Below are positions 13,730-57,352 of a stretch of 64,000 nucleotides of DNA, piece by piece (the first letter of the stretch is position 1; each line of letters starts with the position of its first letter). The DNA is from Eledone cirrhosa (lineage: Eukaryota), in NCBI GenBank assembly GCA_964016885.1, contig OZ024741.1, positions 296,174,001 through 296,238,000 of the forward strand, given 5' to 3'. The notes beneath the pieces were generated by a model. That model was not told the origin of the DNA. It saw only the letters and a list, made by a program, of their open reading frames with translations, and made no database searches. A program made the translations under genes and the position numbers.

Positions 13730-16700
13730 GCTACCACCATCTCCAGCCTCAGTACTGGGCCTATTATACCACCACCACCACCACCATCTCCAGCCTCAGT
13801 ACTGGGCCTATTATACCACCACCACCACCACCCTCCCCAACCTCAGTACTGGGCCTATTATACCACCACCACCACCACCCTCTCCAGCCTCAGTACTGGG
13901 CCTATTATACCACCACCACCACCACCATCTCCAGCCTCAGTACTGGGCCTATTATACCACCACCACCACCACCCTCCCCAACCTCAGTACTGGGCCTATT
14001 ATACCACCACCACCACCACCCTCCCCAACCTCAGTACTGGGCCTATTATACCACCACCACCACCACCCTCTCCAGCCTCAGTACTGGGCCTATTATACCA
14101 CCACCACCACCACCATCTCCAGCCTCAGTACTGGGCCTATTATACCACCACCACCACCACCCTCCCCAACCTCAGTACTGGGCCTATTATACCACCACCA
14201 CCACCACCCTCTCCAGCCTCAGTACTGGGCCTATTATACCACCACCACCACCACCATCTCCAGCCTCAGTACTGGGCCTATTATACCACCACCACCACCA
14301 CCCTCCCCAACCTCAGTACTGGGCCTATTATACCACCACCACCACCACCCTCTCCAGCCTCAGTACTGGGCCTATTATACCACCACCACCACCACCCTCT
14401 CCAGCCTCAGTACTGGGCCTATTATACCACCACCACCACCCTCCCCAACCACAGTACTGGGCCTATTATACCACCAGCACCACCACTATCTCCAGCCTCA
14501 GTACTGGGCCTATTATACCACCACCACCACCACCCTCCCCAACCTCAGTACTGGGCCTATTATACCACCACCACCACCACCATCTCCAGCCTCAGTACTG
14601 GGCCTATTATACCACCACCACCACCACCATCTCCAGCCTCAGTACTGGGCCTATTATAACACCACCACCACCACCCTCCGCAACCACAGTACTGGGCCTA
14701 TTATACCACCACCACCCTCCCCAACCACAGTACGGGGCCTATTATACCACCACCACCACCACCCTCCCCAACCTCAGTACTGGGCCTATTATACCACCAC
14801 CACCACCACCACCCTCTCCAGCCTCAGTACTGGGCCTATTATACCACCACCACCACCACCATCTCCAGCCTCAGTACTGGGCCTATTATAACACCACCAC
14901 CACCACCCTCCGCAACCACAGTACTGGGCCTATTATACCACCACCACCCTCCCCAACCACAGTACTGGGCCTATTATACCACCACCACCACCACCCTCCC
15001 CAACCTCAGTACTGGGCCTATTATACCACCACCACCACCACCACCACCCTCTCCAGCCTCAGTACTGGGCCTATTATACCATCACCACCACCACCCTCTC
15101 CAGCTTCAGTACTGGGCCTATTATACCACCACCACCACCACCCTCCCCAACCTCAGTACTGGGCCTATTATACCACCACCACCACCACCACCACCACCCT
15201 CCCCAACCTCAGTACTGGGCCTATTATACCACCACCACCACCACCACCACCACCCTCTCCAGCCTCAGTACTGGGCCTATTATACCACCACCACCACCAC
15301 CACCACCACCCTCTCCAGCCTCAGTACTGGGCCTATTGTACCACCACCACCACCACCACCACCACCCTCTCCAGCCTCAGTACTGGGCGTATTATACCAC
15401 CACCACCACCACCACCACCACCCTCTCCAGCCTCAGTACTGGGCCTATTATACCACCACCACCACCACCACCATCTCCAGCCTCAGTACTGGGCCTATTA
15501 TACCACCACCACCACCACCACCCTCCCCAACCACAGTACTGGGCCTATTATACCATCACCACCACCACCCTCTCCAGCCTCAGTACTGGGCCTATTATAC
15601 CACCACCACCACCACCCTCCCCAACCTCAGTACTGGGCCTATTATACCACCACCACCACCACCACCATCTCCAGCCTCAGTACTGGGCCTATTATACCAC
15701 CACCACCACCACCCTCCCCAACCTCAGTACTGGGCCTATTATACCACCACCACCACCACCATCTCCAGCCTCAGTACTGGGCCTATTATACCACCACCAC
15801 CACCACCATCTCCAGCCTCAGTACTGGGCCTATTATACCACCACCACCACCACCCTCCCCAACCTCAGTACTGGGCCTATTATACCACCACCACCACCAC
15901 CACCACCAAACCTCTCCAGCCTCAGTACTGGGCCTATTATACCACCACCACCACCACCATCTCCAGCCTCAGTACTGGGCCTATTATACCACCACCACCA
16001 CCACCATCTCCAGCCTCAGTACCGGGCCTATTATACCACCACCACCACCACTCTCCCCAACCTCAGTACTGGGCCTATTATACAACCACCACCACCACCA
16101 TCTCCAGCCTCAGTACCGGGCCTATTATACCACCACCACCACCACCCTCCCCAACCTCAGTACTGGGCCTATTATACCACCACCACCACCATCCTCCCCA
16201 ACCTCAGTACTGGGCCTATTATACCACCACCACCACCACCACCACCACCATCTCCAGCCTCAGTACCGGGCCTATTATACCACCACCATCACCACCATCT
16301 CCAGCCTCAGTACTGGGCCTATTATACCACCACCACCACCACCACCACCACCACCATCTCCAGCCTCAGTACTGGGCCTATTATACCACCACCACCACCC
16401 TCCCCAACCACAGTACTGGGCCTATTATACCACCACCACCACCACCCTCCCCAACCTCAGTACTGGGCCTATTATACCACCACCACCACCACCCTCCCCA
16501 ACCTCAGTACTGGGCCTATTATACCACCACCACCACCACCCTCCCCAACCTCAGTACTGGGCCTATTATACCACCACCACCCTCCCCAACCTCAGTACTG
16601 GGCCTATTATACCACCACCATCACCACCACCACCCTCTACAGCCTCAGTACTGGGCCTATTATACCACCACCACCACCACCCTCTCCAGCCTCAGTACTG

Positions 16701-19700
16701 GGCCTATTATACCACCACCACCACCACCCTCCCCAACCTCAGTACTGGGCCTATTATACCACCACCACCCTCCCCAACCACAGTACTGGGCCTATTATAC
16801 CACCACCACCACCACCCTCCCCAACCTCAGTACTGGGCCTATTATACCACCAGCACCACCCTCCGCAACCACAGTACTGGGCCTATTATACCACCACCAC
16901 CACCACCCTCCCCAACCTCAGTACTGGGTCTATTATACCACCACCACCACCACCATCTCCAGCCTCAGTATTGGGCCTATTATACCACCACCACCCTCCC
17001 CAACCACAGTACTGGGCCTATTATACCACCACCACCACCACCCTCCCCAACCTCAGTACTGGGCCTATTATACCACCACCACCACCACCCTCCCCAACCT
17101 CAGTACTGGGCCTATTATACCACCACCACCACCACCATCTCCAGCCTCAGTACTGGGCCTATTATACCACCACCACCACCACCCTCCCCAACCACAGTAC
17201 TGGGCTTATTATACCACCACCACCACCACCACCCTCCGCAACCTCAGTACTGGGCCTATTATACCACCACCACCACCACCCTCTCCAGCCTCAGTACTGG
17301 GCCTATTATACCACCACCACCACCACCCTCCCCAACCTCAGTACTGGGCCTATTATAACACCACCACCACCCTCCCCAACCACAGTACTGGGCCAATTAT
17401 ACCACCACCACCACCACCCTCCCCAACCTCAGTACTGGGCCTATTATACCACCACCACCCTCCCCAACCACAGTACTGGGCCTATTATACCACCACCACC
17501 CTCCCCAACCTCAGTACTGGGCCTATTATACCACCACCACCACCACCATCTCCAGCCTCAGTACTGGGCCTATTATACCACCACCACCACCACCCTCCCC
17601 AACCTCAGTACTGGGCCTATTATACCACCACCACCACCACCATCTGCAGCCTCAGTACTGGGCCTATTATACCACCACCACCACCCTCCCCAACCTCAGT
17701 ACTGGGCCTATTATACCACCACCACCACCACCATCTCCAGCCTCAGTACTGGGCCTATTATACCACCACCACCACCACCATCTCCAGCCTCAGTACTGGG
17801 CCTATTATACCACCACCACCACCACCCTCCCCAACCTCAGTACTGGGCCTATTATACCACCACCACCACCACCGTCTCCAGCCTAAGTACTGGGCCTATT
17901 ATACCACCACCACCACCACCCTCCCCAACCTCAGTACTGGGCCTATTATACCACCACCACCACCACCATCTCCAGCCTCAGTACTGGGCCTATTATACCA
18001 CCACCACCACCCTCCCCAACCACAGTACTGGGCCTATTATACCACCACCACCACCACCACCATCTCCAGCCGAAGTACTGGGCCTATTATACCACCACCA
18101 CCACCACCCTCCCCAACCTCAGTACTGGGCCTATTATACCACCACCACCACCACTGTCTCCAGCCTAAGTACTGGGCCTATTATACCACCACCACCACCA
18201 CCCTCCCCAACCTCAGTACTGGGCCTATTATACCACCACCACCACCACCCTCCCCAACCTCAGTACTGGGCCTATTATACCACCACCACCACCACCCTCC
18301 CCAACCTCAGTACTGGGCCTATTATACCACCACCACCCTCCCCAACCTCAGTACTGGGCCTATTATACCACCACCATCACCACCACCACCCTCTACAGCC
18401 TCAGTACTGGGCCTATTATACCACCACCACCACCACCCTCTCCAGCCTCAGTACTGGGCCTATTATACCACCACCACCACCACCCTCCCCAACTTCAGTA
18501 CTGGGCCTATTATACCACCACCACCACCACCCTCCCCAACCTCAGTACTGGGTCTATTATACCACCACCACCACCACCATCTCCAGCCTCAGTACTGGGC
18601 CTATTATACCACCACCACCACCACCCTCCCCAACCACAGTACTGGGCCTATTATAACACCACCACCACCACCATCTCCAGCCTCAGTACTGGGCCTATTA
18701 TACCACCACCACCACCACCATCTCCAGCCTCAGTACTGGGCCTATTATACCACCACCACCACCACCCTCCCCAACCACAGTACTGGGCCTATTATAACAC
18801 CACCACCACCACCATCTCCAGCCTCAGTACTGGGCCTATTATACCACCACCACCACCACCATCTCCAGCCTCAGTACTGGGCCTATTATACCACCACCAC
18901 CACCACCATCTCCAGCCTCAGTACTGGGCCTATTATACCACCACCACCACCACCCTCCCCAACCACAGTACTGGGCCTATTATACCACCACCACCACCAC
19001 CCTCCCCAGCCTCAGTACTGGGCCTATTATACCACCACCACCACCACCATCTCCAGCCTCAGTACTGGGCCTATTATACCACCACCACCACCACCCTCCC
19101 CAACCACAGTACTGGGCCTATTATACCACCACCACCACCACCTTCCCCAGCCTCAGTACTGGGCCTATTATACCACCACCACCACCACCATCTCCAGCCT
19201 CAGTACTGGGCCTATTATACCACCACCACCACCACCATCTCCAGCCTCAGTACTGGGCCTATTATACCACCACCACCACCCTCCCCAACCACAGTACTGG
19301 GCCAATTATACCACCACCACCACCACCCTCCCCAACCTCAGTACTGGGCCTATTATACCACCACCACCCTCCCCAACCACAGTACTGGGCCTATTATACC
19401 ACCACCACCCTCCCCAACCTCAGTACTGGGCCTATTATACCACCACCACCACCACCATCTCCAGCCTCAGTACTGGGCCTATTATACCACCACCACCACC
19501 ACCATCTCCAGCCTCAGTACTGGGCCTATTATACCACCACCACCACCACCATCTCCAGCCTCAGTACTGGGCCTATTATACCACCACCACCACCACCCTC
19601 CCCAACCTCAGTACTGGGCCTATTATAACACCACCACCACCACCCTCCCCAACCACAGTACTGGGCCAATTATACCACCACCACCACCACCCTCCCCAAC

Positions 19701-22700
19701 CTCAGTACTGGGCCTATTATACCACCACCACCCTCCCCAACCACAGTACTGGGCCTATTATACCACCACCACCCTCCCCAACCTCAGTACTGGGCCTATT
19801 ATACCACCATCACCACCATCTCCAGCCTCAGTACTGGGCCTATTATACCACCACCACCACCACCCTCCCCAACCTCAGTACTGGGCCTATTATACCACCA
19901 CCACCACCACCATCTGCAGCCTCAGTACTGGGCCTATTATACCACCACCACCACCACCCTCCCCAACCTCAGTACTGGGCCTATTATACCACCACCACCA
20001 CCACCATCTCCAGCCTCAGTACTGGGCCTATTATACCACCACCACCACCACCATCTCCAGCCTCAGTACTGGGCCTATTATACCACCACCACCACCACCC
20101 TCCCCAACCTCAGTACTGGGCCTATTATACCACCACCACCACCACCGTCTCCAGCCTAAGTACTGGGCCTATTATACCACCACCACCACCACCCTCCCCA
20201 ACCTCAGTACTGGGCCTATTATACCACCACCACCATCTCCAGCCTCAGTACTGGGCCTATTATACCACCACCACCACCACCACCATCTCCAGCCTCAGTA
20301 CTGGGCCTATTATACCACCACCACCACCACCCTCCCCAACCTCAGTACTGGGCCTATTATACCACCACCACCACCACCCTCCCCAACCACAGTACTGGGC
20401 CTATTATACCATCACCACCACCACCCTCTCCAGCCTCAGTACTGGGCCTATTATACCACCACCACCACCACCCTCCCCAACCTCAGTACTGGGCCTATTA
20501 TACCACCACCACCACCACCACCATCTCCAGCCTCAGTACTGGGCCTATTATACCACCACCACCACCACCCTCCCCAACCTCAGTACTGGGCCTATTATAC
20601 CACCACCACCACCACCATCTCCAGCCTCAGTACTGGGCCTATTATACCACCACCACCACCACCATCTCCAGCCTCAGTACTGGGCCTATTATACCACCAC
20701 CACCACCACCCTCCCCAACCTCAGTACTGGGCCTATTATACCACCACCACCACCACCACCACCACCCTCTCCAGCCTCAGTACTGGGCCTATTATACCAC
20801 CACCACCACCACCATCTCCAGCCTCAGTACTGGGCCTATTATACCACCACCACCACCACCATCTCCAGCCTCAGTACCGGGCCTATTATACCACCACCAC
20901 CACCACCCTCCCCAACCTCAGTACTGGGCCTATTATACCACCACCACCACCACCATCTCCAGCCTCAGTACCGGGCCTATTATACCACCACCACCACCAC
21001 CCTCCCCAACCTCAGTACTGGGCCTATTATACCACCACCACCACCACCCTCCCCAACCTCAGTACTGGGCCTATTATACCACCACCACCACCACCACCAC
21101 CACCATCTCCAGCCTCAGTACCGGGCCTATTATACCACCACCATCACCACAATCTCCAGCCTCAGTACTGGGCCTATTATACCACCACCACCACCACCAC
21201 CACCATCTCCAGCCTCAGTACTGGGCCTATTATACCACCACCACCACCCTCCCCAACCACAGTACTGGGCCTATTATACCACCACCACCACCACCCTCCC
21301 CAACCTCAGTACTGGGCCTATTATACCACCACCACCACCACCCTCCCCAACCTCAGTACTGGGCCTATTATACCACCACCACCACCACCCTCCCCAACCT
21401 CAGTACTGGGCCTATTATACCACCACCACCCTCCCCAACCTCAGTACTGGGCCTATTATACCACCACCATCACCACCACCACCCTCTACAGCCTCAGTAC
21501 TGGGCCTATTATACCACCACCACCACCACCCTCTCCAGCCTCAGTACTGGGCCTATTATACCACCACCACCACCACCCTCCCCAACCTCAGTACTGGGCC
21601 TATTATACCACCACCACCCTCCCCAACCACAGTACTGGGCCTATTATACCACCACCACCACCACCCTCGCCAACCTCAGTACTGGGCCTATTATACCACC
21701 AGCACCACCCTCCGCAACCACAGTACTGGGCCTATTATACCACCACCACCACCACCCTCCCCAACCTCAGTACTGGGTCTATTATACCACCACCACCACC
21801 ACCATCTCCAGCCTCAGTATTGGGCCTATTATACCACCACCACCCTCCCCAACCACAGTACTGGGCCTATTATACCACCACCACCACCACCCTCCCCAAC
21901 CTCAGTACTGGGCCTATTATACCACCACCACCACCACCCTCCCCAACCTCAGTACTGGGCCTATTATACCACCACCACCACCACCATCTCCAGCCTCAGT
22001 ACTGGGCCTATTATACCACCACCACCACCACCCTCCCCAACCACAGTACTGGGCTTATTATACCACCACCACCACCACCACCCTCCCCAACCTCAGTACT
22101 GGGCCTATTATACCACCACCACCACCACCCTCTCCAGCCTCAGTACTGGGCCTATTATACCACCACCACCACCACCATCTCCAGCCTCAGTACTGGGCCT
22201 ATTATACCACCACCACCACCACCCTCCCCAACCTCAGTACTGGGCCTATTATAACACCACCACCACCCTCCCCAACCACAGTACTGGGCCAATTATACCA
22301 CCACCACCACCACCCTCCCCAACCTCAGTACTGGGCCTATTATACCACCACCACCCTCCCCAACCACACTACTGGGCCTATTATACCACCACCACCCTCC
22401 CCAACCTCAGTACTGGGCCTATTATACCACCACCACCACCACCATCTCCAGCCTCAGTACTGGGCCTATTATACCACCACCACCACCACCCTCCCCAACC
22501 TCAGTACTGGGCCTATTATACCACCACCACCACCACCATCTGCAGCCTCAGTACTGGGCCTATTATACCACCACCACCCTCCCCAACCTCAGTACTGGGC
22601 CTATTATACCACCACCACCACCACCATCTCCAGCCTCAGTACTGGGCCTATTATACCACCACCACCACCACCATCTCCAGCCTCAGTACTGGGCCTATTA

Positions 22701-25700
22701 TACCACCACCACCACCACCCTCACCAACCTCAGTACTGGGCCTATTATACCACCACCACCACCACCGTCTCCAGCCTAAGTACTGGGCCTATTATACCAC
22801 CACCACCACCACCACCCTCCCCAATCTCAGTACTGGGCCTATTATACCACCACCACCACCACCATCTCCAGCCTCAGTACTGGGCCTATTATACCACCAC
22901 CACCACCCTCCCCAACCACAGTACTGGGCCTATTATACCACCACCACCACCACCACCATCTCCAGCCTCAGTACTGGGCCTATTATACAACCACCACCAC
23001 CACCCTCCCCAACCTCAGTACTGGGCCTATTATACCACCACCACCACCACCGTCTCCAGCCTAAGTACTGGGCCTATTATACCACCACCACCACCACCCT
23101 CCCCAACCTCAGTACTGGGCCTATTATACCACCACCACAACCACCCTCCCCAACCTCAGTACTGGGCCTATTATACCACCACCACCACCACCCTCCCCAA
23201 CCTCAGTACTGGGCCTATTATACCACCACCACCCTCCCCAACCTCAGTACTGGGCCTATTATACCACCACCATCACCACCACCACCCTCTACAGCCTCAG
23301 TACTTGGCCTATTATACCACCACCACCACCACCCTCTCCAGCCTCAGTACTGGGCCTATTATACCACCACCACCACCACCCTCCCCAACCTCAGTACTGG
23401 GCCTATTATACCACCACCACCCTCCCCAACCACAGTACTGGGCCTATTATACCACCACCACCACCACCCTCCCCAACCTCAGTACTGGGTCTATTATACC
23501 ACCACCACCACCACCATCTCCAGCCTCAGTATTGGGCCTATTATACCACCACCACCCTGCCCAACCACAGTACTGGGCCTATTATACCACCACCACCACC
23601 ACCCTCCCCAACCTCAGTACTGGGCCTATTATACCACCACCACCACCACCATCTCCAGCCTCAGTACTGGGCCTATTATACCACCACCACCACCACCCTC
23701 CCCAACCACAGTACTGGGCCTATTATACCACCACCACCACCACCACCCTCCCCAGCCTCAGTACTGGGCCTATTATACCACCACCACCACCACCATCTCC
23801 AGCCTCAGTACTGGGCCTATTATACCACCACCACCACCACCCTCCCCAACCTCAGTACTGGGCCTATTATAACACCACCACCACCCTCCCCAACCACAGT
23901 ACTGGGCCAATTATACCACCACCACCACCACCCTCCCCAACCTCAGTACTGGGCCTATTATACCACCACCACCCTCCCCAACCACAGTACTGGGCCTATT
24001 ATACCACCACCACCCTCCCCAACCTCAGTACTGGGCCTATTATACCACCACCACCACCACCATCTCCAGCCTCAGTACTGGGCCTATTATACCACCACCA
24101 CCACCACCCTCCCCAACCTCAGTACTGGGCCTATTATACCACCACCACCACCACCATCTGCAGCCTCAGTACTGGGCCTATTATACCACCACCACCACCC
24201 TCCCCAACCTCAGTACTGGGCCTATTATACCACCACCACCACCACCATCTCCAGCCTCAGTACTGGGCCTATTATACCACCACCACCACCACCATCTCCA
24301 GCCTCAGTACTGGGCCTATTATACCACCACCACCACCACCCTCCCCAACCTCAGTACTGGGCCTATTATACCACCACCACCACCACCGTCTCCAGCCTAA
24401 GTACTGGGCCTATTATACCACCACCACCACCACCACCCTCCCCAACCTCAGTACTGGGCCTATTATACCACCACCACCATCTCCAGCCTCAGTACTGGGC
24501 CTATTATACCACCACCACCACCACCACCATCTCCAGCCTCAGTACTGGGCCTATTATACCACCACCACCACCACCCTCCCCAACCTCAGTACTGGGCCTA
24601 TTATACCACCACCACCACCACCCTCCCCAACCACAGTACTGGGCCTATTATACCACCACCACCACCACCCTCCCCAACCTCAGTACTGGGCCTATTATAC
24701 CACCACCATCACCACCATCTCCAGCCTCAGTACTGGGCCTATTATACCACCACCACCACCCTCCCCAACCACAGTACTGGGCCTATTATACCACCACCAC
24801 CACCACCATCTCCAGCCTCAGTACTGGGCCTATTATACCACCACCACCACCACCATCTCCAGCCTCAGTACTGGGCCTATTATACCACCACCACCACCAC
24901 CCTCCCCAACCTCAGTACTGGGCCTATTATACCACCACCACCACCACCATCTCCAGCCTCAGTACTGGGCCTATTATACCACCACCACCACCACCATCTC
25001 CTGCCTCAGTACTGGGCCTATTATACCACCACCACCACCACCCTCTCCAGCCTCAGTACTGGGCCTATTATACCACCACCACCACCACCATCTCCAGCCT
25101 CAGTACTGGGCCTATTATACCACCACCACCACCACCATCTCCAGCCTCAGTACTGGGCCTATTATACCACCACCACCACCACCATCTCCAGCCTCAGTAC
25201 TGGGCCTATTATACCACCACCACCACCACCATCTCCAGCCTCAGTACTGGGCCTATTATACCACCACCACCACCACCATCTCCAGCCTCAGTACTGGGCC
25301 TATTATACCACCACCACCACCACCCTCCCCAACCTCAGTACTGGGCCTATTATACCACCACCACCACCACCATCTCCAGCCTCAGTACTGGGCCTATTAT
25401 ACCACCACCACCACCCTCCCCAACCACAGTACTGGGCCTATTATACCACCACCACCACCATCTCCAGCCTCAGTACCGGGCCTATTATACCACCACCACC
25501 ACCACCCTCCCCAACCTCAGTACTGGGCCTATTATACCACCACCACCACCACCATCTCCAGCCTCAGTACTGGGCCTATTATACCACCACCACCACCACC
25601 CTCCCCAACCTCAGTACTGGGCCTATTATACCACCACCACCACCACCCTCCCCAACCTCAGTACTGGGCCTATTATACCACCACCACCACCACCACCACC

Positions 25701-27712: not shown

Positions 27713-28137
27713 CCAAAGATTAATATGGTTCGTTGATTACTCAACGAATACAATATTACAATAGATTAGAAGCACTCAACTAGAGATTTTCCTGCAGTTT
27801 TTAATATTATTCAAAATGTAAATAAATGAAAAATATTCTCATAATCAAAATATATATTTCATTATACATATTTCAAAGGTACAATGGTGTTTAAGTATGT
27901 TTTCATCAGACAAAATATATGATTTGATATGTGACATAGCGCTACAGTTTTGATTAGTCAATTCTAGTATTAGCAATACTGGAATTGAATAATCAAATCC
28001 GTAGCGCTATGTCACATATCAAATCATATATTTTGTCTGATAAAAACGTACTTAAACACCATTGTACCTTTGAAATATGTATAATAAAATATATATTTTG
28101 ATTATGAGAATATTTTTCATTTATTAACATTTTGAAT
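27710..28137 (-). mobile_element. Fold-back PLE pLTR-like remnant (329 bp palindrome 27809-28137 + tail 27710-27808) with degenerate HHRs
   Basis: Near-perfect hairpin centred at about 27973. On the minus strand the left arm reads ATATATTTTGT-CTGATGA-stem II-GAAA-TATGTA-TA-ATGAAATATAT. The right arm has the core mutated to CTGATAA. Confidence 0.7.
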
Positions 28138-28311
28138 CCATACGTACATATATATATGTGTGTATGTATGTATATATATACATACTAGTGTACGTCTGTA
28201 TACATGTATACATACTTATATTTAAGTATCAGCCGTACTAAGAGTGAGAAATGAAATTTCATTTTTTCCATTTACCGTTTTCGGTACACCCGGCCGACTA
28301 ACTCACTCGAT

Positions 28312-28319
28312 ATGCAAAT
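28312..28319 (+). promoter_or_regulatory. Octamer motif ATGCAAAT, conserved in both retrozyme-like subfamilies
   Basis: actcactcgatATGCAAATtaggctg here; actcacactctATGCAAATtagtctg on the minus strand of every full 466-bp unit (first at 33063-33070). Function is inferred. Confidence 0.45.
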
Positions 28320-28393
28320 TAGGCTGCTCAGCCGTTAATATGCATAAGTAAAGTATATACTTTCAAACGTTCAATCGACTGACAGGAAGGTAT

Positions 28394-28436
28394 ACGGTGC
28401 TGATGACAGCTAATACGCTAGAAACTAGTTCATCGT
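28394..28436 (+). ncRNA. Minimal type I hammerhead ribozyme
   Basis: ACGGTG-CTGATGA-cAGC taatac GCTa-GAAA-CTAG-TT-CATCGT. Stem I is 6 bp with one G-U pair, stem III is the palindrome ACTAGT, the triplet is GUU, and there is a C.A mismatch at the base of stem II. Confidence 0.8.
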
Positions 28437-28647
28437 TCCTTAGTCAGTGTTGAACAAAAGGGCAACGATGGTTGCCGAACACTGTACGGCTACTAATTCG
28501 GGCTGTTTGTTTACAAACAAACCGAGCATTATAATAAATGTTCGATGAACCCATACGTACATATATATATATATATGTGTGCATATATGTATGTATATAC
28601 ATAGTAGTATACGTCTGTATACATATATGTATGTACGTATACAAACT

Positions 28648-28714
<67 letters not shown>

Positions 28715-29347
28715 GTGTGTGTGTGTGTAAAATACGGACGTCGATTAATAAAATCGGATCTTGTATTTAGACAAGTACTATTACGTATTCTCTGAAAGAC
28801 ATTTATTCGTTCGTCAATGAGCCGACAGGACAAATTCATCGCCACCAACCCCAAGAGCTCAAGCCCACCTGGATGCTCTTGTAGAAACCCAGAAACACCT
28901 CCTTCAACAACAGTGTAACGCACCCGCAATACTCTATGAAGCTGAAGTTACATCTACTCGACCAAACCAACAACAGGAGGTCAACACATATGTTCTGGGC
29001 CTGACACTAACAAGTTAGAATGTGTTCTGTGCCTACGATGAGATGACGGTGCAGAGTCGGGTCCCGAGCACTATGATTGAACCTAAGCTGATCGATATCG
29101 AAACAATTGTTATATGTAATAAAGTTCATTTACGGTGCAATTTAGATTTCGTTCTTGCTTAGTTGTATTTACACTCTGCACGTTACAGCCGCTTTAGCCC
29201 TGAAATACACTGAAGTATAGGGTTTACTCTACACAACACGGAACCGCCTAATAGCATTGAGTGCTTTAACTGACGAACGGCTTGTAACTATAGTTTTCCT
29301 TTTTCCTTTTACACACCTACAAATACTGCTACACAGTATGTGTGTGT

Positions 29348-32711: not shown

Positions 32712-32717
<6 letters not shown>

Positions 32718-35700
32718 GTTAAAAATGTACATCCACATATGTATACTGAAATACTAGTATGCATATGAATACACACACGTATACATATGTAGATGTACCG
32801 AGTTTTTCACTGGTCACTTTACTGTGCGTGTCCAGCTATTCTGTATGTAAACACACAGACAAACCGGTTTTTAGAGTCATACTGGTTTTTGAGGAAACAC
32901 CTTTCCTCTATTCTCCAGAAAGCCAGACAAGGAATATTGAACTAGTTTCGATGTTGTTACATCTCATCAGCAATATTTACCTATCTTCCGGCCTCTCTAG
33001 AGAATCGTAAAAGCACATATCGTTATATGCTTTTTCTATGAAAATTAGTAGTGGGCAGACTAATTTGCATAGAGTGTGAGTACGTACCGGTTCAACGGAG
33101 ACGATAAAAACAAATAACGAAACGAAATTAAATTTCGTTTCGTTTGTAACTCACTTTTGTATGACTGACGCTTAAACAATTAAGTTAAAAATGTACATCC
33201 ACATATGTATACTGAAATACTAGTATGCATATGAATACACACACGTATACATATGTAGATGTACCGAGTTTTTCACTGGTCACTTTACTGTGCGTGTCCA
33301 GCTATTCTGTATGTAAACACACAGACAAACCGGTTTTTAGAGTCATACTGGTTTTTGAGGAAACACCTTTCCTCTATTCTCCAGAAAGCCAGACAAGGAA
33401 TATTGAACTAGTTTCGATGTTGTTACATCTCATCAGCAATATTTACCTATCTTCCGGCCTCTCTAGAGAATCGTAAAAGCACATATCGTTATATGCTTTT
33501 TCTATGAAAATTAGTAGTGGGCAGACTAATTTGCATAGAGTGTGAGTACGTACCGGTTCAACGGAGACGATAAAAACAAATAACGAAACGAAATTAAATT
33601 TCGTTTCGTTTGTAACTCACTTTTGTATGACTGACGCTTAAACAATTAAGTTAAAAATGTACATCCACATATGTATACTGAAATACTAGTATGCATATGA
33701 ATACACACACGTATACATATGTAGATGTACCGAGTTTTTCACTGGTCACTTTACTGTGCGTGTCCAGCTATTCTGTATGTAAACACACAGACAAACCGGT
33801 TTTTAGAGTCATACTGGTTTTTGAGGAAACACCTTTCCTCTATTCTCCAGAAAGCCAGACAAAGAATATTGAACTAGTTTCGATGTTGTTACATCTCATC
33901 AGCAATATTTACCTATCTTCCGGCCTCTCTAGAGAATCGTAAAAGCACATATCGTTATATGCTTTTTCTATGAAAATTAGTAGTGGGCAGACTAATTTGC
34001 ATAGAGTGTGAGTACGTACCGGTTCAACGGAGACGATAAAAACAAATAACGAAACGAAATTAAATTTCGTTTCGTTTGTAACTCACTTTTGTATGACTGA
34101 CGCTTAAACAATTAAGTTAAAAATGTACATCCACATATGTATACTGAAATACTAGTATGCATATGAATACACACACGTATACATATGTAGATGTACCGAG
34201 TTTTTCACTGGTCACTTTACTGTGCGTGTCCAGCTATTCTGTATGTAAACACACAGACAAACCGGTTTTTAGAGTCATACTGGTTTTTGAGGAAACACCT
34301 TTCCTCTATTCTCCAGAAAGCCAGACAAGGAATATTGAACTAGTTTCGATGTTGTTACATCTCATCAGCAATATTTACCTATCTTCCGGCCTCTCTAGAG
34401 AATCGTAAAAGCACATATCGTTATATGCTTTTTCTATGAAAATTAGTAGTGGGCAGACTAATTTGCATAGAGTGTGAGTACGTACCGGTTCAACGGAGAC
34501 GATAAAAACAAATAACGAAACGAAATTAAATTTCGTTTCGTTTGTAACTCACTTTTGTATGACTGACGCTTAAACAATTAAGTTAAAAATGTACATCCAC
34601 ATATGTATACTGAAATACTAGTATGCATATGAATACACACACGTATACATATGTAGATGTACCGAGTTTTTCACTGGTCACTTTACTGTGCGTGTCCAGC
34701 TATTCTGTATGTAAACACACAGACAAACCGGTTTTTAGAGTCATACTGGTTTTTGAGGAAACACCTTTCCTCTATTCTCCAGAAAGCCAGACAAGGAATA
34801 TTGAACTAGTTTCGATGTTGTTACATCTCATCAGCAATATTTACCTATCTTCCGGCCTCTCTAGAGAATCGTAAAAGCACATATCGTTATATGCTTTTTC
34901 TATGAAAATTAGTAGTGGGCAGACTAATTTGCATAGAGTGTGAGTACGTACCGGTTCAACGGAGACGATAAAAACAAATAACGAAACGAAATTAAATTTC
35001 GTTTCGTTTGTAACTCACTTTTGTATGACTGACGCTTAAACAATTAAGTTAAAAATGTACATCCACATATGTATACTGAAATACTAGTATGCATATGAAT
35101 ACACACACGTATACATATGTAGATGTACCGAGTTTTTCACTGGTCACTTTACTGTGCGTGTCCAGCTATTCTGTATGTAAACACACAGACAAACCGGTTT
35201 TTAGAGTCATACTGGTTTTTGAGGAAACACCTTTCCTCTATTCTCCAGAAAGCCAGACAAGGAATATTGAACTAGTTTCGATGTTGTTACATCTCATCAG
35301 CAATATTTACCTATCTTCCGGCCTCTCTAGAGAATCGTAAAAGCACATATCGTTATATGCTTTTTCTATGAAAATTAGTAGTGGGCAGACTAATTTGCAT
35401 AGAGTGTGAGTACGTACCGGTTCAACGGAGACGATAAAAACAAATAACGAAACGAAATTAAATTTCGTTTCGTTTGTAACTCACTTTTGTATGACTGACG
35501 CTTAAACAATTAAGTTAAAAATGTACATCCACATATGTATACTGAAATACTAGTATGCATATGAATACACACACGTATACATATGTAGATGTACCGAGTT
35601 TTTCACTGGTCACTTTACTGTGCGTGTCCAGCTATTCTGTATGTAAACACACAGACAAACCGGTTTTTAGAGTCATACTGGTTTTTGAGGAAACACCTTT

Positions 35701-36664
35701 CCTCTATTCTCCAGAAAGCCAGACAAGGAATATTGAACTAGTTTCGATGTTGTTACATCTCATCAGCAATATTTACCTATCTTCCGGCCTCTCTAGAGAA
35801 TCGTAAAAGCACATATCGTTATATGCTTTTTCTATGAAAATTAGTAGTGGGCAGACTAATTTGCATAGAGTGTGAGTACGTACCGGTTCAACGGAGACGA
35901 TAAAAACAAATAACGAAACGAAATTAAATTTCGTTTCGTTTGTAACTCACTTTTGTATGACTGACGCTTAAACAATTAAGTTAAAAATGTACATCCACAT
36001 ATGTATACTGAAATACTAGTATGCATATGAATACACACACGTATACATATGTAGATGTACCGAGATTTTCACTGGTCACTTTACTGTGCGTGTCCAGCTA
36101 TTCTGTATGTAAACACACAGACAAACCGGTTTTTAGAGTCATACTGGTTTTTGAGGAAACACCTTTCCTCTATTCTCCAGAAAGCCAGACAAGGAATATT
36201 GAACTAGTTTCGATGTTGTTACATCTCATCAGCAATATTTACCTATCTTCCGGCCTCTCTAGAGAATCGTAAAAGCACATATCGTTATATGCTTTTTCTA
36301 TGAAAATTAGTAGTGGGCAGACTAATTTGCATAGAGTGTGAGTACGTACCGGTTCAACGGAGACGATAAAAACAAATAACGAAACGAAATTAAATTTCGT
36401 TTCGTTTGTAACTCACTTTTGTATGACTGACGCTTAAACAATTAAGTTAAAAATGTACATCCACATATGTATACTGAAATACTAGTATGCATATGAATAC
36501 ACACACGTATACATATGTAGATGTACCGAGTTTTTCACTGGTCACTTTACTGTGCGTGTCCAGCTATTCTGTATGTAAACACACAGACAAACCGGTTTTT
36601 AGAGTCATACTGGTTTTTGAGGAAACACCTTTCCTCTATTCTCCAGAAAGCCAGACAAGGAATA
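32712..36664 (-). repeat. Tandem array of 8 full + 1 partial (225 bp) 466-bp hammerhead-containing units (retrozyme-like)
   Basis: Units start at 32712 + 466n. Only two substitutions were noticed across the array (about 33863 and 36065). Each full unit has one HHR. The left end abuts (TA)n. Confidence 0.95.
32933..32977 (-). ncRNA. Minimal type I hammerhead ribozyme, first of 8 (others start at 33399, 33865, 34331, 34797, 35263, 35729, 36195)
   Basis: Minus strand reads AATATTG-CTGATGA-GATGT aaca ACATC-GAAA-CTAG-TT-CAATATT. It has a perfect 7-bp stem I, a 5-bp stem II, an intact core and the palindromic stem III ACTAGT. The GUU cleavage site falls between 32940 and 32939. Confidence 0.9.
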
Positions 36665-36762: not shown

Positions 36763-36856
<94 letters not shown>

Positions 36857-37364
36857 ATACTTGGGGAGGGTCATATTTGTGTAATATTGCCAGAATTAAG
36901 AACAGAACACACTCACTGTTCGGTTGGTTTTCGCTTTTCGCTTCTGTGTCTTTTATATCGGTAATTTAATTTATTCGGTCCTCAATGTTGCCATTGACTG
37001 ACCAACGGTCAAAAATAATACAGATACAATATAGACACAAACACATATATATAGTTTATCATAAATCTTTCGTTGCACATCTGCAACATCGTCAGTGGTG
37101 CTATTGTTTCCTCCTGTTGAATTGTATGGCTACGCCATTTTTTTCAGTCTGTCTATATATTTATTTATTTATTTGCTTGTTTGTTTATTTTATTTTGTCT
37201 TCTTTGCGCATGCGTTTGCGTGTGTGTATAGTGTTTTGTTTGATGTGTGATGTGTGTTCGTGATTGGGTGACTAATGTGTGTTTATGTGTTTGTTGTTAT
37301 TGTGCTTGTGTATGTATTTATTTATTTATTTATTTATTTATTTTATTTTATTTTATTTACTTAT

Positions 37365-38046
37365 TTATACTTCTCTTAGGTCAGTGTTGTTTGTTTGGGT
37401 GTTGTTGTTATTCCATTCATTCTTTCTGTTTAGTCTTGGTCTTCTAAGTTCTATTTCACTGGCCTCTCTGATTTGCCTATCTGCTGGGTCATTTCTATGT
37501 TTAGATATTATTCTAATTTCTATGTTGTCTATGTTACCGTCATGTTGTTGTCTGGCATGTTCGTATAGTACTGACCCGTTTTTTCGTCCTTTTAGTTCCC
37601 CCCAATGTTGGTCTATCCTTTCACCTATGCTACGAGCTGTCTCACCTATGTATGTTGTTGTCATGTTTCTGCAGGTACCCTCTGTACATCTTATGCTATA
37701 GACTACGTTTCTAGTTTTACAGTTTATCCGGTGCTTTACCTTACATATGATACACTTCCTATTGGTACAGTGGGTTTTCTTAAAAGGGTAGGTTTTGGTG
37801 ATCAGGGATTTTATGGTGGTTCCTGGCTTTTCTACCACCTTAATTTTTAAGTGGGTCTTTCTCAGGGCCTTTCTACACTGGTTAGCTAATTTCCCTCCAG
37901 GGGTAGCGTCCACAAACATGATACTCTGGTATCTCTGGTTGTCGTACCATGAGGTGGCTTTCCCTATCTTATGTCTAGCCCTATCTAAGCTATTCCATGA
38001 TTTGCTCCTGTATAATGGGCAAATTCCTTTCATGTCCAGTTCTATG
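37365..38046 (-). pseudogene. Inverted duplicate of the PLE GIY-YIG coding region
   Basis: The 222-aa ORF is almost identical to the C-terminus of ORF 38615-39982. Confidence 0.92.
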
Positions 38047-39982
38047 CCAACAACTTCCAGGCGTCTAACAATGGCATACTACCCTTGTATGGGTTCCGCA
38101 AAGACCACAAGACAGTCGACGACCCGACAACAGGACCACCAACAAGACCCGTATGCGGAGCTAATATAGCTAGTAACTACAGGATCTCCTACTTCCTCTC
38201 AATGGTTATACGCCCCATAATCAAGATGTCCCCGGATGTATGTGACAGTACAGAGTACCTCCTCAGCAGAATCAGTGAGTGCAACAAAAACAGGAACCTA
38301 TCCAACTGCATAATAGGCAGCATGGATGTTGTGTCACTGTACCCATCCATTAACATTGATTTTGCTGTGAAAAAATGTGTGGAGATGATCATTGAGAGTG
38401 AGGTGGAGTTCTGCGACGTCGACACAGACGAACTGGGCCTCCTACTTAGACTTACCTACGACACTGACTACCTAGACAGCCATGACCTTAGACGTTTCTG
38501 CCCTAGTAGACCCATAAGAGGTAGACCCCCCACCATAACCTCAATGGCAAAAAAGACTCCCATGGGTGGACCAAAGCTATACGGACCCCCCAAAACAATG
38601 ATCAGGTAAGAAAAATGGTCGCACATGCAATAGGAGCTAGTATCAAAACTACCCTCAAGGGCCACATATTTAAGTTCAACGAGAAGATCTACACCCAAAA
38701 TGAAGGAGCAGCCATTGGCGTCAGCATAGCTGATGATGTTGCCAACCTTTTCATGGTTTGGTGGGAAAGGAGACTTAAATATCTCCTTAATGAGAGCTCC
38801 ATAGACCTCATCATGTACTCTCGTTATGTAGACGATATCAATATAGTTATAAGAACATCCCCACTAGAGAGCACTAACAAGTTTGATTTAGAACGTAGCA
38901 CAATGGAAAGCATCCAGCAGATAGCTAATTCCATACACCAGAGTATAACTGTAACTATCGACTTCCCTTCCAAACACCCTAACAATAGACTACCTGTATT
39001 AGACACAGAACTCTGGATTAACACTATAGACGAGAGAGCCCAAATTCTCCACTCACACTATGCTAAACCCATGGCCTCCAAATACCTGATACTCAAAAAC
39101 TCAGCAATGTCCAGTAGTGCTAAGTTTAATATTCTGATCGCAGATTTGGTACGAGTGATGAAGAATGTGTCCCGCATGTGCGATCCAACAGAAATGGAAA
39201 GACACATCCAACACTTCATCAACCGCATGCAGTTCTCTGGCTACAACCAAAGAGACAGAGTCAGAGTATACGAAGGAGCCATGGAGAAGTATAAGACCCT
39301 CATAGAACTGGACATGAAAGGAATTTGCCCATTATACAGGAGCAAATCATGGAATAGCTTAGATAGGGCTAGACATAAGATAGGGAAAGCCACCTCATGG
39401 TACGACAACCAGAGATACCAGAGTGTCATGTTTGTGGACGCTACCCCTGGAGGGAAATTAGCTAACCAGTGTAGAAAGGCCCTGAGAAAGACCCACTTAA
39501 AAATTAAGGTGGTAGAAAAGCCAGGAACCACCATAAAATCCCTGATCAGCAAAACCTACCCTTTTAAGAAAACCCACTGTACCAATAGGAAGTGTATCAT
39601 ATGTAAGGTAGAGCCCCGGATAAACTGTAAAACTAGAAACGTAGTCTATAGCATAAGATGTACAGAGGGTACCTGCAGAAACATGACAACAACATACATA
39701 GGTGAGACAGCTCGTAGCATAGGTGAAAGGATAGACCAACATTGGGGGGAACTAAAAGGACGAAAAAACGGGTCAGTACTATACGAACATGCCAGACAAC
39801 AACATGACGGTAACATAGACAACATAGAAATTAGAATAATATCTAAACATAGAAATGACCCAGCAGATAGGCAAATCAGAGAGGCCAGTGAAATAGAACT
39901 TAGAAGACCAAGACTAAACAGAAAGAATGAATGGAATAACAACAACACCCAAACAAACAACACTGACCTAAGAGAAGTATAA
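38047..39982 (+). pseudogene. PLE reverse transcriptase + C-terminal GIY-YIG endonuclease (5'-truncated, one frameshift near 38545-38615)
   Basis: RT motifs: PLYGFRKDHK, RPVCG, MDVVSLYPSI, QNEGAAIG, YSRYVDD, LPVLD. Linker CTNRKCIIC...NC. GIY-YIG motifs: NVVYSIRC...YIGETARSIGERIDQH...REASEI...PRLN. Confidence 0.93.
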
Positions 39983-40256
39983 ATAAGTAAATAAAATAAA
40001 ATAAAATAAATAAATAAATAAATAAATAAATAAATACATACACAAGCACAATAACAACAAACACATAAACACACATTAGTCACCCAATCACGAACACACA
40101 TCACACATCAAACAAAACACTATACACACACGCAAACGCATGCGCAAAGAAGACAAAATAAAATAAACAAACAAGCAAATAAATAAATAAATATATAGAC
40201 AGACTGAATAAAAATGGCGTAGCCATACAATTCAACAGGAGGAAACAATAGCACCA

Positions 40257-40296
40257 CTGACGATGTTGCAGATGTGCAACGAAAGATTTATGATAA
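40257..40296 (+). ncRNA. HHR-like core in the PLE pLTR (inverted copy about 37056-37095)
   Basis: CTGACGA-t-GTTGCA gatg TGCAAC-GAAA followed by a bulged stem III ending in CUA. The stem I partner is not adjacent, so the fold is incomplete. Confidence 0.45.
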
Positions 40297-40568
40297 ACTA
40301 TATATATGTGTTTGTGTCTATATTGTATCTGTATTATTTTTGACCGTTGGTCAGTCAATGGCAACATTGAGGACCGAATAAATTAAATTACCGATATAAA
40401 AGACACAGAAGCGAAAAGCGAAAACCAACCGAACAGTGAGTGTGTTCTGTTCTTAATTCTGGCAATATTACACAAATATGACCCTCCCCAAGTATAACAA
40501 TATTTGTTTCGACACACGATTTCATATAAAAAACCTCGCAAAACTAAATCACCGCCGTTATATATATA

Positions 40569-46231: not shown

Positions 46232-46296
46232 TATTTCATTATGCATATTTCAAGGACACCAAGTTAAATTATGGTGTGCTTTCATCAGATAAAATA
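46232..46296 (-). ncRNA. Type I HHR motif in a PLE-like remnant
   Basis: Minus strand reads TATTTTAT-CTGATGA-AAGcACACCA...TGGTGTcCTT-GAAA-TATGCA-TA-ATGAAATA. Its flank aatggaaactatatttataaaaccat is shared with 60820 and 63613. Confidence 0.65.
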
Positions 46297-49901: not shown

Positions 49902-50444
49902 AAAGAGAAAGTAGTGTTATTCGTGGTAGTGGTGGCTGTGATTGTGGTAGTGTTGGTTGCGATGGTTGTGGTAGTTGCGGTTGTGGGGTGGGGGTTGTGG
50001 TAGTGATGGTTTTGGTGGTAGGGGTCGTGGTGGTTGTGGTAGTGGTTATTATGGTAGTGGTGATTGTGGTAGTGGTGGTGGTGGTTGCGGTAGTGATGGT
50101 TGTGGTAGTGATGGTAGTGGTGGTAGTGGTGGTTGTGGTAGTGATGGTTTTGGTGGTAGTGGTCTGGTGATTGTGGTAGTGGTGGTTGTGGTGGTTGTAG
50201 TGGTTTTGTTAGTGGTGGTGGTGGTTGTGGCAATGATGGTTGGTGATTGTTGGTGATTGTGGTAGTGGTGATGGTAGTAGTGGTTGTGGTAGTTGTGGTA
50301 GTGGTGATGGTAGTAGTGGTTGTGGTAGTTGTGGTAGTGGTGGATGTGATCGTGGTAGTGTTGGTTGTGGTGGTTGTGGTAGTGGTGATCGTGATAGTGG
50401 TGATTGTGGTAGTGATGATTGTGATAGTGATGATTGTGGAAGTT

Positions 50445-53400
50445 GAGGTAGTGGTAGTAGTGGTTGTGACAGTGGTGGCTGAGGTGGTGGTAGTAGTGGT
50501 TGTGACAGTGGTGGTTGTGGTAGTGGTAGTAGTGGTTGTGACAGTGGTGGTTGAGGTGGTGGTAGTAGTGGTTGTGACAGTGGTGGCTGAGGTGGTGGTA
50601 GTAGTGGTTGTGACAGTGGTGGTTGAGGTGGTGGTAGTAGTGGTTGTGACAGTGGTGGATGTGGAAGTGGTAGTAGTGGTTGTAACAGTGGTGGTTGTGG
50701 TGGTGGTAGTAGTGGTTATGACAGTGGTGGTTGTGGTAGTGGTAGTAGTGGTTGTGACAGTGGTGGTTGAGGTGGTGGTAGTAGTGGTTGTGACAGTGGT
50801 GGTTGTGGTAATGGTAGTAGTGGTTGTGACAGTGGTGGTTGTGGTAGTGGTAGTAGTGGTTGTGACAGTGGTGGTTGTGGTAATGGTAGTAGTGGTTGTG
50901 ACAGTGGTGGTTGAGGTGGTGGTAGTAGTGGTTGTGACAGTGGTGGTTGTGGTAATGGTAGTAGTGGTTGTGACAGTGGTGGTTGTGGTAGTGGTAGTAG
51001 TGGTTGAGACAGTGGTGGTTGTGGTAGTGGTAGTAGTGGTTGTGACAGTGGTGGTTGTGGTAATGGTAGTAGTGGTTGTGACAGTGGTGGTTGAGGTGGT
51101 GGTAGTAGTGGTTGTGACAGTGGTGGTTGTGGTAATGGTAGTAGTGGTTGTGACAGTGGTGGTTGAGGTGGTGGTAGTAGTGGTTGTGACAGTGGTGGTT
51201 GTGGTAATGGTAGTAGTGGTTGTGACAGTGGTGGTTGTGGTAGTGGTAGTAGTGGTTGAGACAGTGGTGGTTGTGGTAGTGGTAGTAGTGGTTGTGACAG
51301 TGGTGGTTGAGGTAGTGGTAGTAGTGGTTGTGACAGTGGTGGTTGTGGTAATGGTAGTAGTGGTTGTGACAGTGGTGGTAGTGGTAGTGGTAGTAGTGGT
51401 TGTGACAGTGGTGGTTGTGGTAATGGTAGTAGTGGTTGTGACAGTGGTGGTTGAGGTGGTGGTAGTAGTGGTTGTGACAGTGGTGGTTGAGGTAGTGGTA
51501 GTAGTGGTTGTGACAGTGGTGGTTGAGGTGGTGGTAGTAGTGGTTGTGACAGTGGTGGTTGTGGTAATGGTAGTAGTGGTTGTGACAGTGGTGGTTGAGG
51601 TGGTGGTAGTAGTGGTTGTGACAGTGGTGGTTGTGGTAATGGTAGTAGTGGTTGTGACAGTGGTGGTTGAGGTAGTGGTAGTAGTGGTTATGACAGTTGT
51701 GGTTGTGGTAGTGGTAGTAGTGGTTGTGACAGTGGTGGTTGAGGTGGTGGTAGTAGTGGTTGTGACAGTGGTGGTTGTGGTAGTGGTAGTAGTGGTTATG
51801 ACAGTTGTGGTTGTGGTAGTGGTAGTAGTGGTTGTGACAGTGGTGGTTGAGGTGGTGGTAGTAGTGGTTGTGACAGTGGTGGTTGAGGTAGTGGTAGTAG
51901 TGGTTATGACAGTTGTGGTTGTGGTAGTGGTAGTAGTGGTTGTGACAGTGGTGGTTGAGGTGGTGGTAGTAGTGGTTGTGACAGTGGTGGTTGTGGTAAT
52001 GGTAGTAGTGGTTGTGACAGTGGTGGTTGTGGTAGTGGTAGTAGTGGTTATGACAGTGGTGGTTGTTGTAGTGGTAGTAGTGGTTGTGACAGAGGTGGTT
52101 GAGGTGGTGGTAGTAGTGGTTGTGACAGTGGTGGTTGTGGTAGTGGTAGTAGTGGTTGTGACAGTGGTGGTTGAGGTGGTGGTAGTAGTGGTTGTGACAG
52201 TGGTGGTTGTGGTAGTGGTAGTAGTGGTTGTGACAGTGGTGGTTGAGGTGGTGGTAGTAGTGGTTGTGACAGTTGTGGTTGTGGTAGTGGTAGTAGTGGT
52301 TGTGACAGTGGTGGTTGAGGTGGTGGTAGTAGTGGTTGTGACAGTGGTGGTTGTGGTAATGGTAGTAGTGGTTGTGACAGTGGTGGTTGTGGTAGTGGTA
52401 GTAGTGGTTATGACAGTGGTGGTTGTTGTAGTGGTAGTAGTGGTTGTGACAGAGGTGGTTGAGGTGGTGGTAGTAGTGGTTGTGACAGTGGTGGTTGAGG
52501 TAGTGGTAGTAGTGGTTATGACAGTGGTGGTTGAGGTGGTGGTAGTAGTGGTTGTGACAGTGGTGGTAGTGGTGGTGGTAGTAGTGGTTGTGACAGTGGT
52601 GGTTGTGGTAATGGTAGTAGTGGTTGTGACAGTGGTGGTTGTTGTAGTGGTAGTAGTGGTTGTGACAGAGGTGGTTGAGGTGGTGGTAGTAGTGGTTGTG
52701 ACAGTGGTGGTTGTGGTAGTGGTAGTAGTGGTTGTGACAGTGGTGGTTGAGGTGGTGGTAGTAGTGGTTTTGACAGTTGTGGTTGTGGTAGTAGTGGTTG
52801 TGACAGTGGTGGTTGTGGTAGTGGTAGTAGTGGTTGTGACAGTGGTGGTTGTGGTAGTGGTAGTAGTGGTTGTGACAGTGGTGGTTGAGGTGGTGGTAGT
52901 AGTGGTTGTGACAGTGGTGGTTGTGGTAGTGGTAGTAGTGGTTGTGACAGTGGTGGTTGAGGTGGTGGTAGTAGTGGTTGTGACAGTGGTGGTTGTGGTA
53001 ATGGTAGTAGTGGTTGTGACAGTGGTGGTTGTTGTAGTGGTAGTAGTGGTTGTGACAGAGGTGGTTGAGGTGGTGGTAGTAGTGGTTGTGACAGTGGTGG
53101 TTGTGGTAGTGGTAGTAGTGGTTGTGACAGTGGTGGTTGAGGTAGTGGTAGTAGTGGTTGTGACAGTGGTGGTTGAGGTAGTGGTAGTAGTGGTTGTGAC
53201 AGTGGTGGTAGTGGTGGTGGTAGTAGTGGTTGTGACAGTGGTGGTTGAGGTAGTGGTAGTAGTGGTTGTGACAGTGGTGGTTGTGGTAGTGGTAGTAGTG
53301 GTTGTGACAGTGGTGGTTGAGGTAGTGGTAGTAGTGGTTGTGACGGGGCTGGTTGTGGGAGTGGTAGTGGTAGTTGTGACAGTGGTGGTTGAGGTAGTCG

Positions 53401-56400: not shown

Positions 56401-57352
56401 TGGTGGTAGTGTTGGTGGTAGTAGTGGTTGTGACAGTGGTGGTTGTGGTAGTGGTAGTAGTGGTTGTGACAGAGGCGGTTGTGGCAGTGGTAGTAGTGGT
56501 TGTGACAGTGGTGGTAGTGTTGGTGGTAGTAGTGGTTGTGACAGTGGTAGTAGTGGTGGTGGTAGTAGTGGTTGTGACAGAGGTGGTAGTGGTAGTGGTA
56601 GTAGTGGTTGTGACAGTGGTGGTAGTGGTGGTGGTAGTAGTGGTTGTGACAGAGGTGGTAGTGGTGGTGGTAGTAGTGGTTGTGACAGAGGTGGTAGTGG
56701 TGGTGGTAGTAGTGGTTGTGACAGAGGTGGTAGTGGTGGTGGTAGTAGTGGTTGTGACAGAGGTGGTAGTGGTGGTGGTAGTAGTGGTTGTGACAGAGGT
56801 GGTAGTGGTGGTGGTAGTAGTGGTTGTGACAGAGGTGGTAGTGGTGGTGGTAGTAGTGGTTGTGACAGTGGTGGTTGTGGTGGTGGTAGTAGTGGTTGTG
56901 ACAGTGGTGGTAGTGGTGGTGGTAGTAGTGGTTGTGACAGAGGTGGTAGTGGTGGTGGTAGTAGTGGTTGTGACAGTGGTGGTTGTGGTGGTGGTAGTAG
57001 TGGTTTCGACAGTGGTGGTAGTGGTGGTGGTAGTAGTGGTTGTGACAGAGGTGGTAGTGGTGGTGGTAGTAGTGGTTGTGACAGTGGTGGTTGTGGTGGT
57101 GGTAGTAGTGGTTGTGACAGTGGTGGTAGTGGTGGTGGTAGTAGTGGTTGTGACAGTGGTGGTAGTGGTGGTGGTAGTAGTGGTTGTGACAGAGGTGGTA
57201 GTGGTGGTGGTAGTAGTGGTTGTGACAGTGGTGGTTGTGGTGGTGGTAGTAGTGGTTGTGACAGTGGTGGTAGTGGTGGTGGTAGTAGTGGTTGTGACAG
57301 AGGTGGTAGTGGTGGTGGTAGTAGTGGTTGTGACAGTGGTGGTTGTGACAGA
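50445..57352. repeat. 6.9 kb satellite with a 36-bp unit (gtgacagtggtggttgtggtagtggtagtagtggtt)
   Basis: About 190 units. The minus strand reads (VTTTTTTTTTTT)n and the plus strand (TVVVVVVVVVVV)n. Confidence 0.97.

Follow-up and report, generated by a model that had tools for sequence, protein, structure and literature searches.

The DNA element at positions 28138-28650 of a 64,000-nt window from Eledone cirrhosa (the whole stretch analysed here, on contig OZ024741.1) is a member of a new family of animal non-LTR retrozymes, classed by motif and covariation, and selection on the RNA fold of its whole unit is supported by covariation, folding scores and sense-strand bias in combination. We consider it likely that this high-copy, protein-free repeat, with a fold kept across its lineages, is a non-autonomous retroelement. 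Its RNA would likely be cut by paired ribozymes, and a Penelope-like enzyme with reverse transcriptase and endonuclease domains would likely insert the copies into TA microsatellites.

The element and its family

The element consists of about 1.2 units of a protein-free repeat of ~425 nt, so arranged that 28138-28220 recurs at 28551-28650 (Table 1). As the original prediction held, it is collinear over its whole length with the reverse complement of the 466-nt unit of the tandem array at 32712-36664: the local alignment of the two cores (A, the element; B, the array unit), with TA-rich and simple ends removed, scores 453, compared to a mean of 119 +/- 18 and a maximum of 193 in 300 dinucleotide shuffles, and is identical in 221 of 316 columns. 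All motifs, stems and coordinates named in that prediction were recovered, including stem I (ACGGTG at 28394, CATCGT at 28431), the octamer at 28312 and CTGATGA at 28400. The element had been called a diverged second member of the family of the array; it does belong to the same family, and it is not a lone copy but one of a lineage with thousands of copies.

Table 1. Features of the element and of the related array (window coordinates)
Feature	Positions	Strand	Remarks
Solo insertion, lineage A1, ~1.2 units	28138..28650	+	Truncated at the 5' end; stops at the first of the family's fixed 3' sites and runs into (TA)n
Long-range helix, first arm	28231..28238	+	AGCCGTAC at 28231; partner 28484-28491
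Second helix, GAGTGAG 28242-28248 / CTCACTC 28302-28308	28242..28308	+	Two hairpins and the second fixed 3' site (~28274) lie inside it
Octamer box ATGCAAAT at 28312 and TATA-like box at 28354	28311..28360	+	Candidate internal snRNA-type promoter
Type I hammerhead, extended stem I	28369..28455	+	By motif; predicted cut after 28430 (GUU)
Hairpin GGCAAC (28461) / GTTGCC (28471)	28461..28476	+	6-pair stem, sequence differing, in 7/7 lineages
Long-range helix, second arm	28484..28491	+	GTACGGCT at 28484
Two more hairpins, kept across lineages	28504..28544	+	
Partial second unit, TA-rich hairpins	28551..28650	+	Stops at the fixed 3' site
(TA)n tract, likely target	28651..28711	.	
Lineage B array, 8.5 x 466 nt, eight hammerhead cores	32712..36664	-	Starts 3 nt behind the predicted cut; ends in (TA)n
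B array counterpart of long-range helix			AGTCATAC 32875 / GTATGACT 33159

In the genome of 3.0 Gb, the A1 element has 2382 candidate relatives (40 of them scored) and array unit B has 468. Searches with patterns gave 7,770 exact matches versus 1 in the control, 26,159 versus 6 for the octamer combined with the hammerhead, and 12,940 versus 0 for an exact 21-mer. The fetched loci hold distinct hammerhead segments of eight lineages (A1, 37; A2, 28; A3, 17; B1, 33; B2, 23; F, 24; D, 44; G, 3), the majority sequences of which are 44-83% identical to one another. Units were measured at 429-494 nt, in round figures 425-500 nt, and occur both in tandem arrays and as solo copies; the longest Met-started frame has 60 aa in the A unit and 83 aa in the B unit. 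Locus L115 and its kin, as well as a few single loci, were left out of the lineage set, because no alignment with the unit could be made by eye; L115, L171-L175 and L177-L180 form an older octamer-plus-hammerhead family with a conventional stem III.

Seven full units of the B array differ from its first unit by 0-2 bases. Over 337 nt, the copy at 28138-28650 departs from the A1 majority by 7 listed differences, of which loop 2 contains one, and by a single indel; its first TA hairpin is shortened. With a single hammerhead this copy is a monomer, whereas the B array has eight and other A loci contain tandems; at least two complete hammerheads in tandem, by which Li et al. define an 'active' copy, are found in the family and not in this copy. 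A solo copy with one dimer-dependent hammerhead is probably a dead end, the inert offspring of its lineage.

The element is directly adjoined, at 27809-28137, by an inverted pair (163-nt arms, 95%) of another hammerhead-core family, here called C, with a mutated core in the right arm. Family C has relatives at 46288 and 63700 (both on the minus strand) and at many other loci; at one of these, L070, a copy is found ~240 nt before a long open frame that looks Penelope-like, although Pfam gives no support for this. A template switch between A and the neighbouring C was considered and rejected, the shared junction at locus L030 being better read as insertion of C into A's own TA run. On the other side lies a short, rearranged piece (28720-28990) that is similar to the C-terminal portion of the Penelope-like frames at two other loci (L013 and L051).

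The predicted hammerhead ribozyme

Stem I of the predicted hammerhead (28394-28399/28431-28436) carries a bulged extension to 28369/28455. The core is made of CTGATGA (28400-28406) and GAAA (28421-28424; GAAACTAGTT at 28421), stem II consists of three pairs (28408-28410/28417-28419) above a C.A mismatch, and stem III is reduced to one pair with the loop CUAG, within the palindrome AACTAGTT at 28423-28430. The core, stems I-III and the NUH triplet are present in all eight lineage majorities, and the mismatch at the base of stem II is shared by A1-A3, F and D. In lineage F the stem III loop has changed from CUAG to CAUG, a double change that leaves a palindrome; self-pairing of either palindrome is worth about -6.5 kcal/mol. 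No Rfam family, hammerhead or other, reaches its gathering score in the window, and what matches near the element are hairpin families with low scores; therefore the ribozyme is assigned by motif and covariation. The predicted hammerhead fits the axolotl and newt type, which cleaves as a dimer (PMC7229834; PMC4209133). According to Li et al. 2026 (bioRxiv 10.64898/2026.07.22.740005), only one in nine predicted retrozyme dimers was cleaved.

Covariation and the fold of the whole unit

RNAalifold, given a sequence-only alignment of 13 real copies, recovers unprompted the long-range helix, stems I and II and a second helix (28242-28248/28302-28308) that was absent from the original prediction; 16 of the 37 pairs found are changed on both sides. 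In the three helices that were predicted originally, 88% of cells pair (75% in shuffles) and double-sided changes are seen at 11 of 20 pairs, as in 2 of 500 shuffles; in the two helices outside the ribozyme the corresponding values are 89% and 7 of 15 pairs (5 of 500 shuffles). Such shuffles ignore kinship among the copies, and the lineage majorities were therefore tested against a tree-aware null. Over seven lineages, 55 of the 56 cells of the long-range helix are paired, and 6 of its 8 pairs have changed on both sides. A tree null with independent columns and the same number of changes expects 13.4 or 11.1 unpaired cells, depending on which of two transition biases is used, which corresponds to P of 4e-6 and 6e-5, by a sum statistic over pairs and in a small sample of seven lineages related by one uncertain tree. 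When D and G, the arms of which were anchored by hand, are set aside, 39 of 40 cells are paired, with P of 2e-5 and 4e-4.

Stem I is paired in 42 of 42 cells across the lineages. Covariation is weaker in the second helix, where 38 of 42 cells are paired; one of its pairs in A2 is G-C or A-U in all 17 readable segments out of 28, and never a mismatch. The hairpin at 28461-28476 keeps six pairs in each of the seven lineages with differing sequences, and the next two hairpins were tabulated in six lineages each, the arms of these local hairpins having been picked by eye in divergent lineages. The compensatory changes of the original prediction are thus real and reach outside the ribozyme in the tree-aware test; they arose between the source lineages, and not in the copy at 28138-28650.

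Paired changes could also be produced by mutation, if the polymerase switched template from one inverted repeat to the other while making DNA or cDNA, and so transferred the sequence of one arm to its partner. Local hairpins readily undergo such switching, and inversions and template jumps are frequent in this family. In the best-supported helix, however, 250 nt separate the two arms (~170 nt if counted across the unit junction); moreover, G.U pairs of the sense strand are kept in many stems, the sense strand folds better than the antisense, and the octamer stays fixed while the strand opposite varies. A mutational origin is in our estimate highly improbable, and selection on the fold is the reading that we follow below.

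Circular monomers fold with z scores of -6.8 (A) and -8.5 (B), relative to 40 shuffles each, and the two predicted folds share one architecture, in agreement with the original expectation. In both monomers the stems of the original prediction form with a mean pair probability of 0.98-1.0, stem I excepted (0.50 in A, 0.87 in B). The outer shape of the fold is common to A, A2, A3 and B, and differs in the unit of locus L003. In seven of the eight lineage segments the sense strand folds better than the antisense, the exception being G, with its three copies. Every helix can form both in a circle and in a linear read-through multimer, and therefore covariation cannot choose between these two forms.

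What the present analysis adds is the covariation test. The literature on animal retrozymes, surveyed mostly by title, yielded no report of covariation outside the ribozyme, with the proviso that supplements may hold suitable alignments; likewise, no listed title on octopus hammerhead ribozymes concerns the family of 28138-28650. In the pDo500 satellite of Dolichopoda crickets, also a ribozyme-bearing repeat, the abstract of PMC2837043 places the compensatory changes in the hammerhead stems, whereas in the present family they are found in helices outside the ribozyme as well.

Insertion anatomy and the copied form of the RNA

Among 30 A1 loci, the 3' ends in front of (TA)n fall at the first site (equivalent of ~28224) in 15 and at the second (~28274) in seven, the other eight lying elsewhere. 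The 5' ends are scattered, and 17 of the 30 loci have an inverted 5' arm. Craig et al. 2021 (PMC8557442) report for Penelope-like elements 5' truncation, partial tandems, inverted 5' copies, a tail of 30-40 bp and a bias for microsatellites, and the copies of our family have this anatomy of Penelope-type retrotransposition.

The form of the copied RNA was approached with the first 100 of the 12,940 matches of the pattern just behind the cut, which gave 93 distinct segments. The predicted cleavage site is crossed in 91 of them, and 61 run on for at least 110 nt. The RNA copied is therefore either a circle closed by ligation or a multimer left uncut, and only seldom a linear monomer released by the cut; this read-through is compatible with a circle and does not prove one. 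Contigs from two sequencing runs of unrecorded kind showed variants of the family and nothing further on expression. Linear cut monomers were rejected as the main template, given that 2 of the 93 segments stop at the cut and 5 of 158 5' ends lie within -3..+5 of it, versus 3.2 expected. RNA-editing scars were not accepted either: A>G changes outnumber T>C by 117 to 77 over seven lineages, being higher in four of the seven and reversed in B1.

The original prediction explained the fold by a replicating structured circRNA. In its strongest form, this would make the unit a viroid-like circular RNA, replicated from RNA to RNA and selected for a fold serving that cycle, and the strong, conserved branched fold would suit it, as would copies that cross the cut site as if made from a circle. 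Retrozymes of mussel, coral and axolotl are circular RNAs, and RNA-RNA replication is mentioned for them as a possibility. Yet ribozymes are not found in both polarities, the antisense hammerhead core being missing from all eight lineage majorities and from both units in the window, and the insertions have the anatomy of retrotransposition, which already needs a folded RNA. The claim is not supported as worded, and viroid-like replication is extremely improbable.

A different alternative keeps the same insertion anatomy and makes the unit the pLTR of an autonomous Penelope-like element, the copies being its 5'-truncated remnants. Li et al. relate vertebrate retrozymes to pLTRs (bioRxiv 10.64898/2026.07.22.740005), and at locus L070 a different hammerhead-core family does sit before a long open frame. 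Upstream of the unit in the 30 A1 loci, however, there is more unit, an inverted unit or unrelated flank, with no coding sequence common to them and a joined RT-GIY-YIG frame in none; nor is the unit the 3' end of Penelope-like elements in 30 loci of one family and 8 of a younger one, the two families checked. We regard the pLTR origin as very unlikely, and favour a non-autonomous element.

Penelope-like helper candidates

Frames of 796 aa with RVT_1 and GIY-YIG domains are open in six of the eight loci fetched, and the copies carrying them end in (TA)n at two sites. The linker in these frames (L301-L308, a young family) has the form CX4CxxC described from Neptune and Nematis, two clades of such elements. 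The 3' region of this family is long and TA/TG-rich, and a search by pattern finds no canonical hammerhead core in the family. Simple repeats aside, the unit and the 796-aa elements are not homologous, and neither of the two Penelope-like families (30 and 8 loci) yielded an autonomous element with the unit, or a homologue of it, as terminal repeat. A likeness of the tail to that of one family is marginal, reached in 45 of 1000 shuffles and being one of 15 comparisons.

The window itself contains a Penelope-like element at 36853-40560, with an inverted 5' part and both ends in (TA)n. Its 485-aa frame (38525-39979) has a weak RVT_1 match (E 0.015) and, by eye, a GIY-YIG-like end, and the element has hammerhead-like cores of its own at 37095 (-) and 40257 (+).

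A candidate internal promoter

The octamer at 28312 is fixed while its pairing partner strand varies, although in F, D and G its conservation is partly built in, because these lineages were first found via the octamer pattern. Among 12 distinct regions upstream of host U6 genes, two contain the octamer unchanged at -76/-77, and eight that belong to one cluster contain a variant differing by one base. The box at -80..-62 of three host U6 promoters matches the octamer box of A1 (0-2 of 100 shuffles reach the match), but the spacing from the octamer box to the TATA box is 42 in A1 against 46-47 in host U6. Projected from this match, transcription would start 10-12 nt before the core, i.e., at the 5' edge of the ribozyme. 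On these sequence grounds the octamer/TATA block is a lead for an internal snRNA-type promoter. Read-through by Pol III is doubtful, because the units hold runs of T4-T6. Newt satellite 2 has an internal snRNA-type promoter, according to a citing passage in PMC2220036; promoter activity is demonstrated there, whereas the present unit has a candidate by sequence.

The host U6 genes with the octamer or its one-base variant at about -77 (L146-L165) have a compact layout. No octamer was seen within 300 nt of the host U2 genes fetched, and the match of a U2-type promoter block in A1 is not significant, 16-27 of 100 shuffles reaching it. In lineage D (L097, L141 and kin) the octamer box is repeated in tandem about three times at 33-nt spacing, and the block after these repeats resembles one host U2 promoter (2 of 100 shuffles).

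A possible life cycle

We propose that the cycle begins with transcription of tandem arrays, perhaps driven by the octamer/TATA block of every unit; that adjacent hammerheads then exchange their palindromic stem III in pairs and release a unit-length RNA; that this RNA would then be ligated, or else remain multimeric; and that reverse transcription may start at one of two sites beside the long-range helix. Under this proposal selection would act on source lineages, because only RNAs that fold would be processed and copied. The two fixed 3' ends flank one arm of the covarying long-range helix, and this leads to a bolder reading, in which the fold serves as a scaffold for docking and offers the priming site to a Penelope-type, telomerase-related reverse transcriptase, and the unit is a complete, self-promoted RNA transposon copied from a circle. 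We offer it tentatively, as possible and rather unlikely. If true, a single unit would combine an snRNA-type promoter, a dimer ribozyme and a domain for loading of the reverse transcriptase.

Comparison with known systems

Animal non-LTR retrozymes (PMC7229834; bioRxiv 10.64898/2026.07.22.740005) likewise have short, non-coding, AT-rich units with one type I hammerhead each, range from monomers to long arrays with thousands of copies, share the genome with Penelope-like elements, and have strongly self-paired predicted monomers. Units of the present family (425-500 nt) are above the 170-400 nt given in the 2020 paper (PMC7229834) and inside the 51-972 bp of the 2026 preprint. Circular RNA has been demonstrated for animal non-LTR retrozymes (PMC7229834), and is a candidate form in the present family. 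The axolotl HHR_Amex1/2 retrozymes and newt satellite 2 (PMC7229834) resemble the family in a helix III that is reduced to one pair, closes a palindromic tetraloop and depends on a dimer, and Amex2 also in the mismatch at the base of helix II, a likeness of ribozyme architecture.

Penelope-like elements and pLTR hammerheads (PMC8557442; PMC4209133) share with our family 5' truncation, partial tandems, inverted 5' arms, alternative 3' ends with a tail, microsatellite targets and a palindromic helix III. Unlike Penelope-like elements, the unit has no reading frame, and its tail is ~50-60 nt in A and ~75 nt in B.

Animal retrozymes being known, the interest of the family lies in the role of the sequence outside the ribozyme and the pickup of the RNA by a Penelope-like enzyme. 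Seven lineages that have the same helices at 44-83% identity amount to a structure model with ready-made rescue mutations. Lineage helices, young arrays and intact candidate helpers occur in one genome, and template recognition by Penelope-like reverse transcriptases is therefore testable in this system. Elsewhere in the window there are long satellites with periods of 47, 36/72 and 71 nt, at 13733-25694, 49923-57347 and 59029-60593, respectively.
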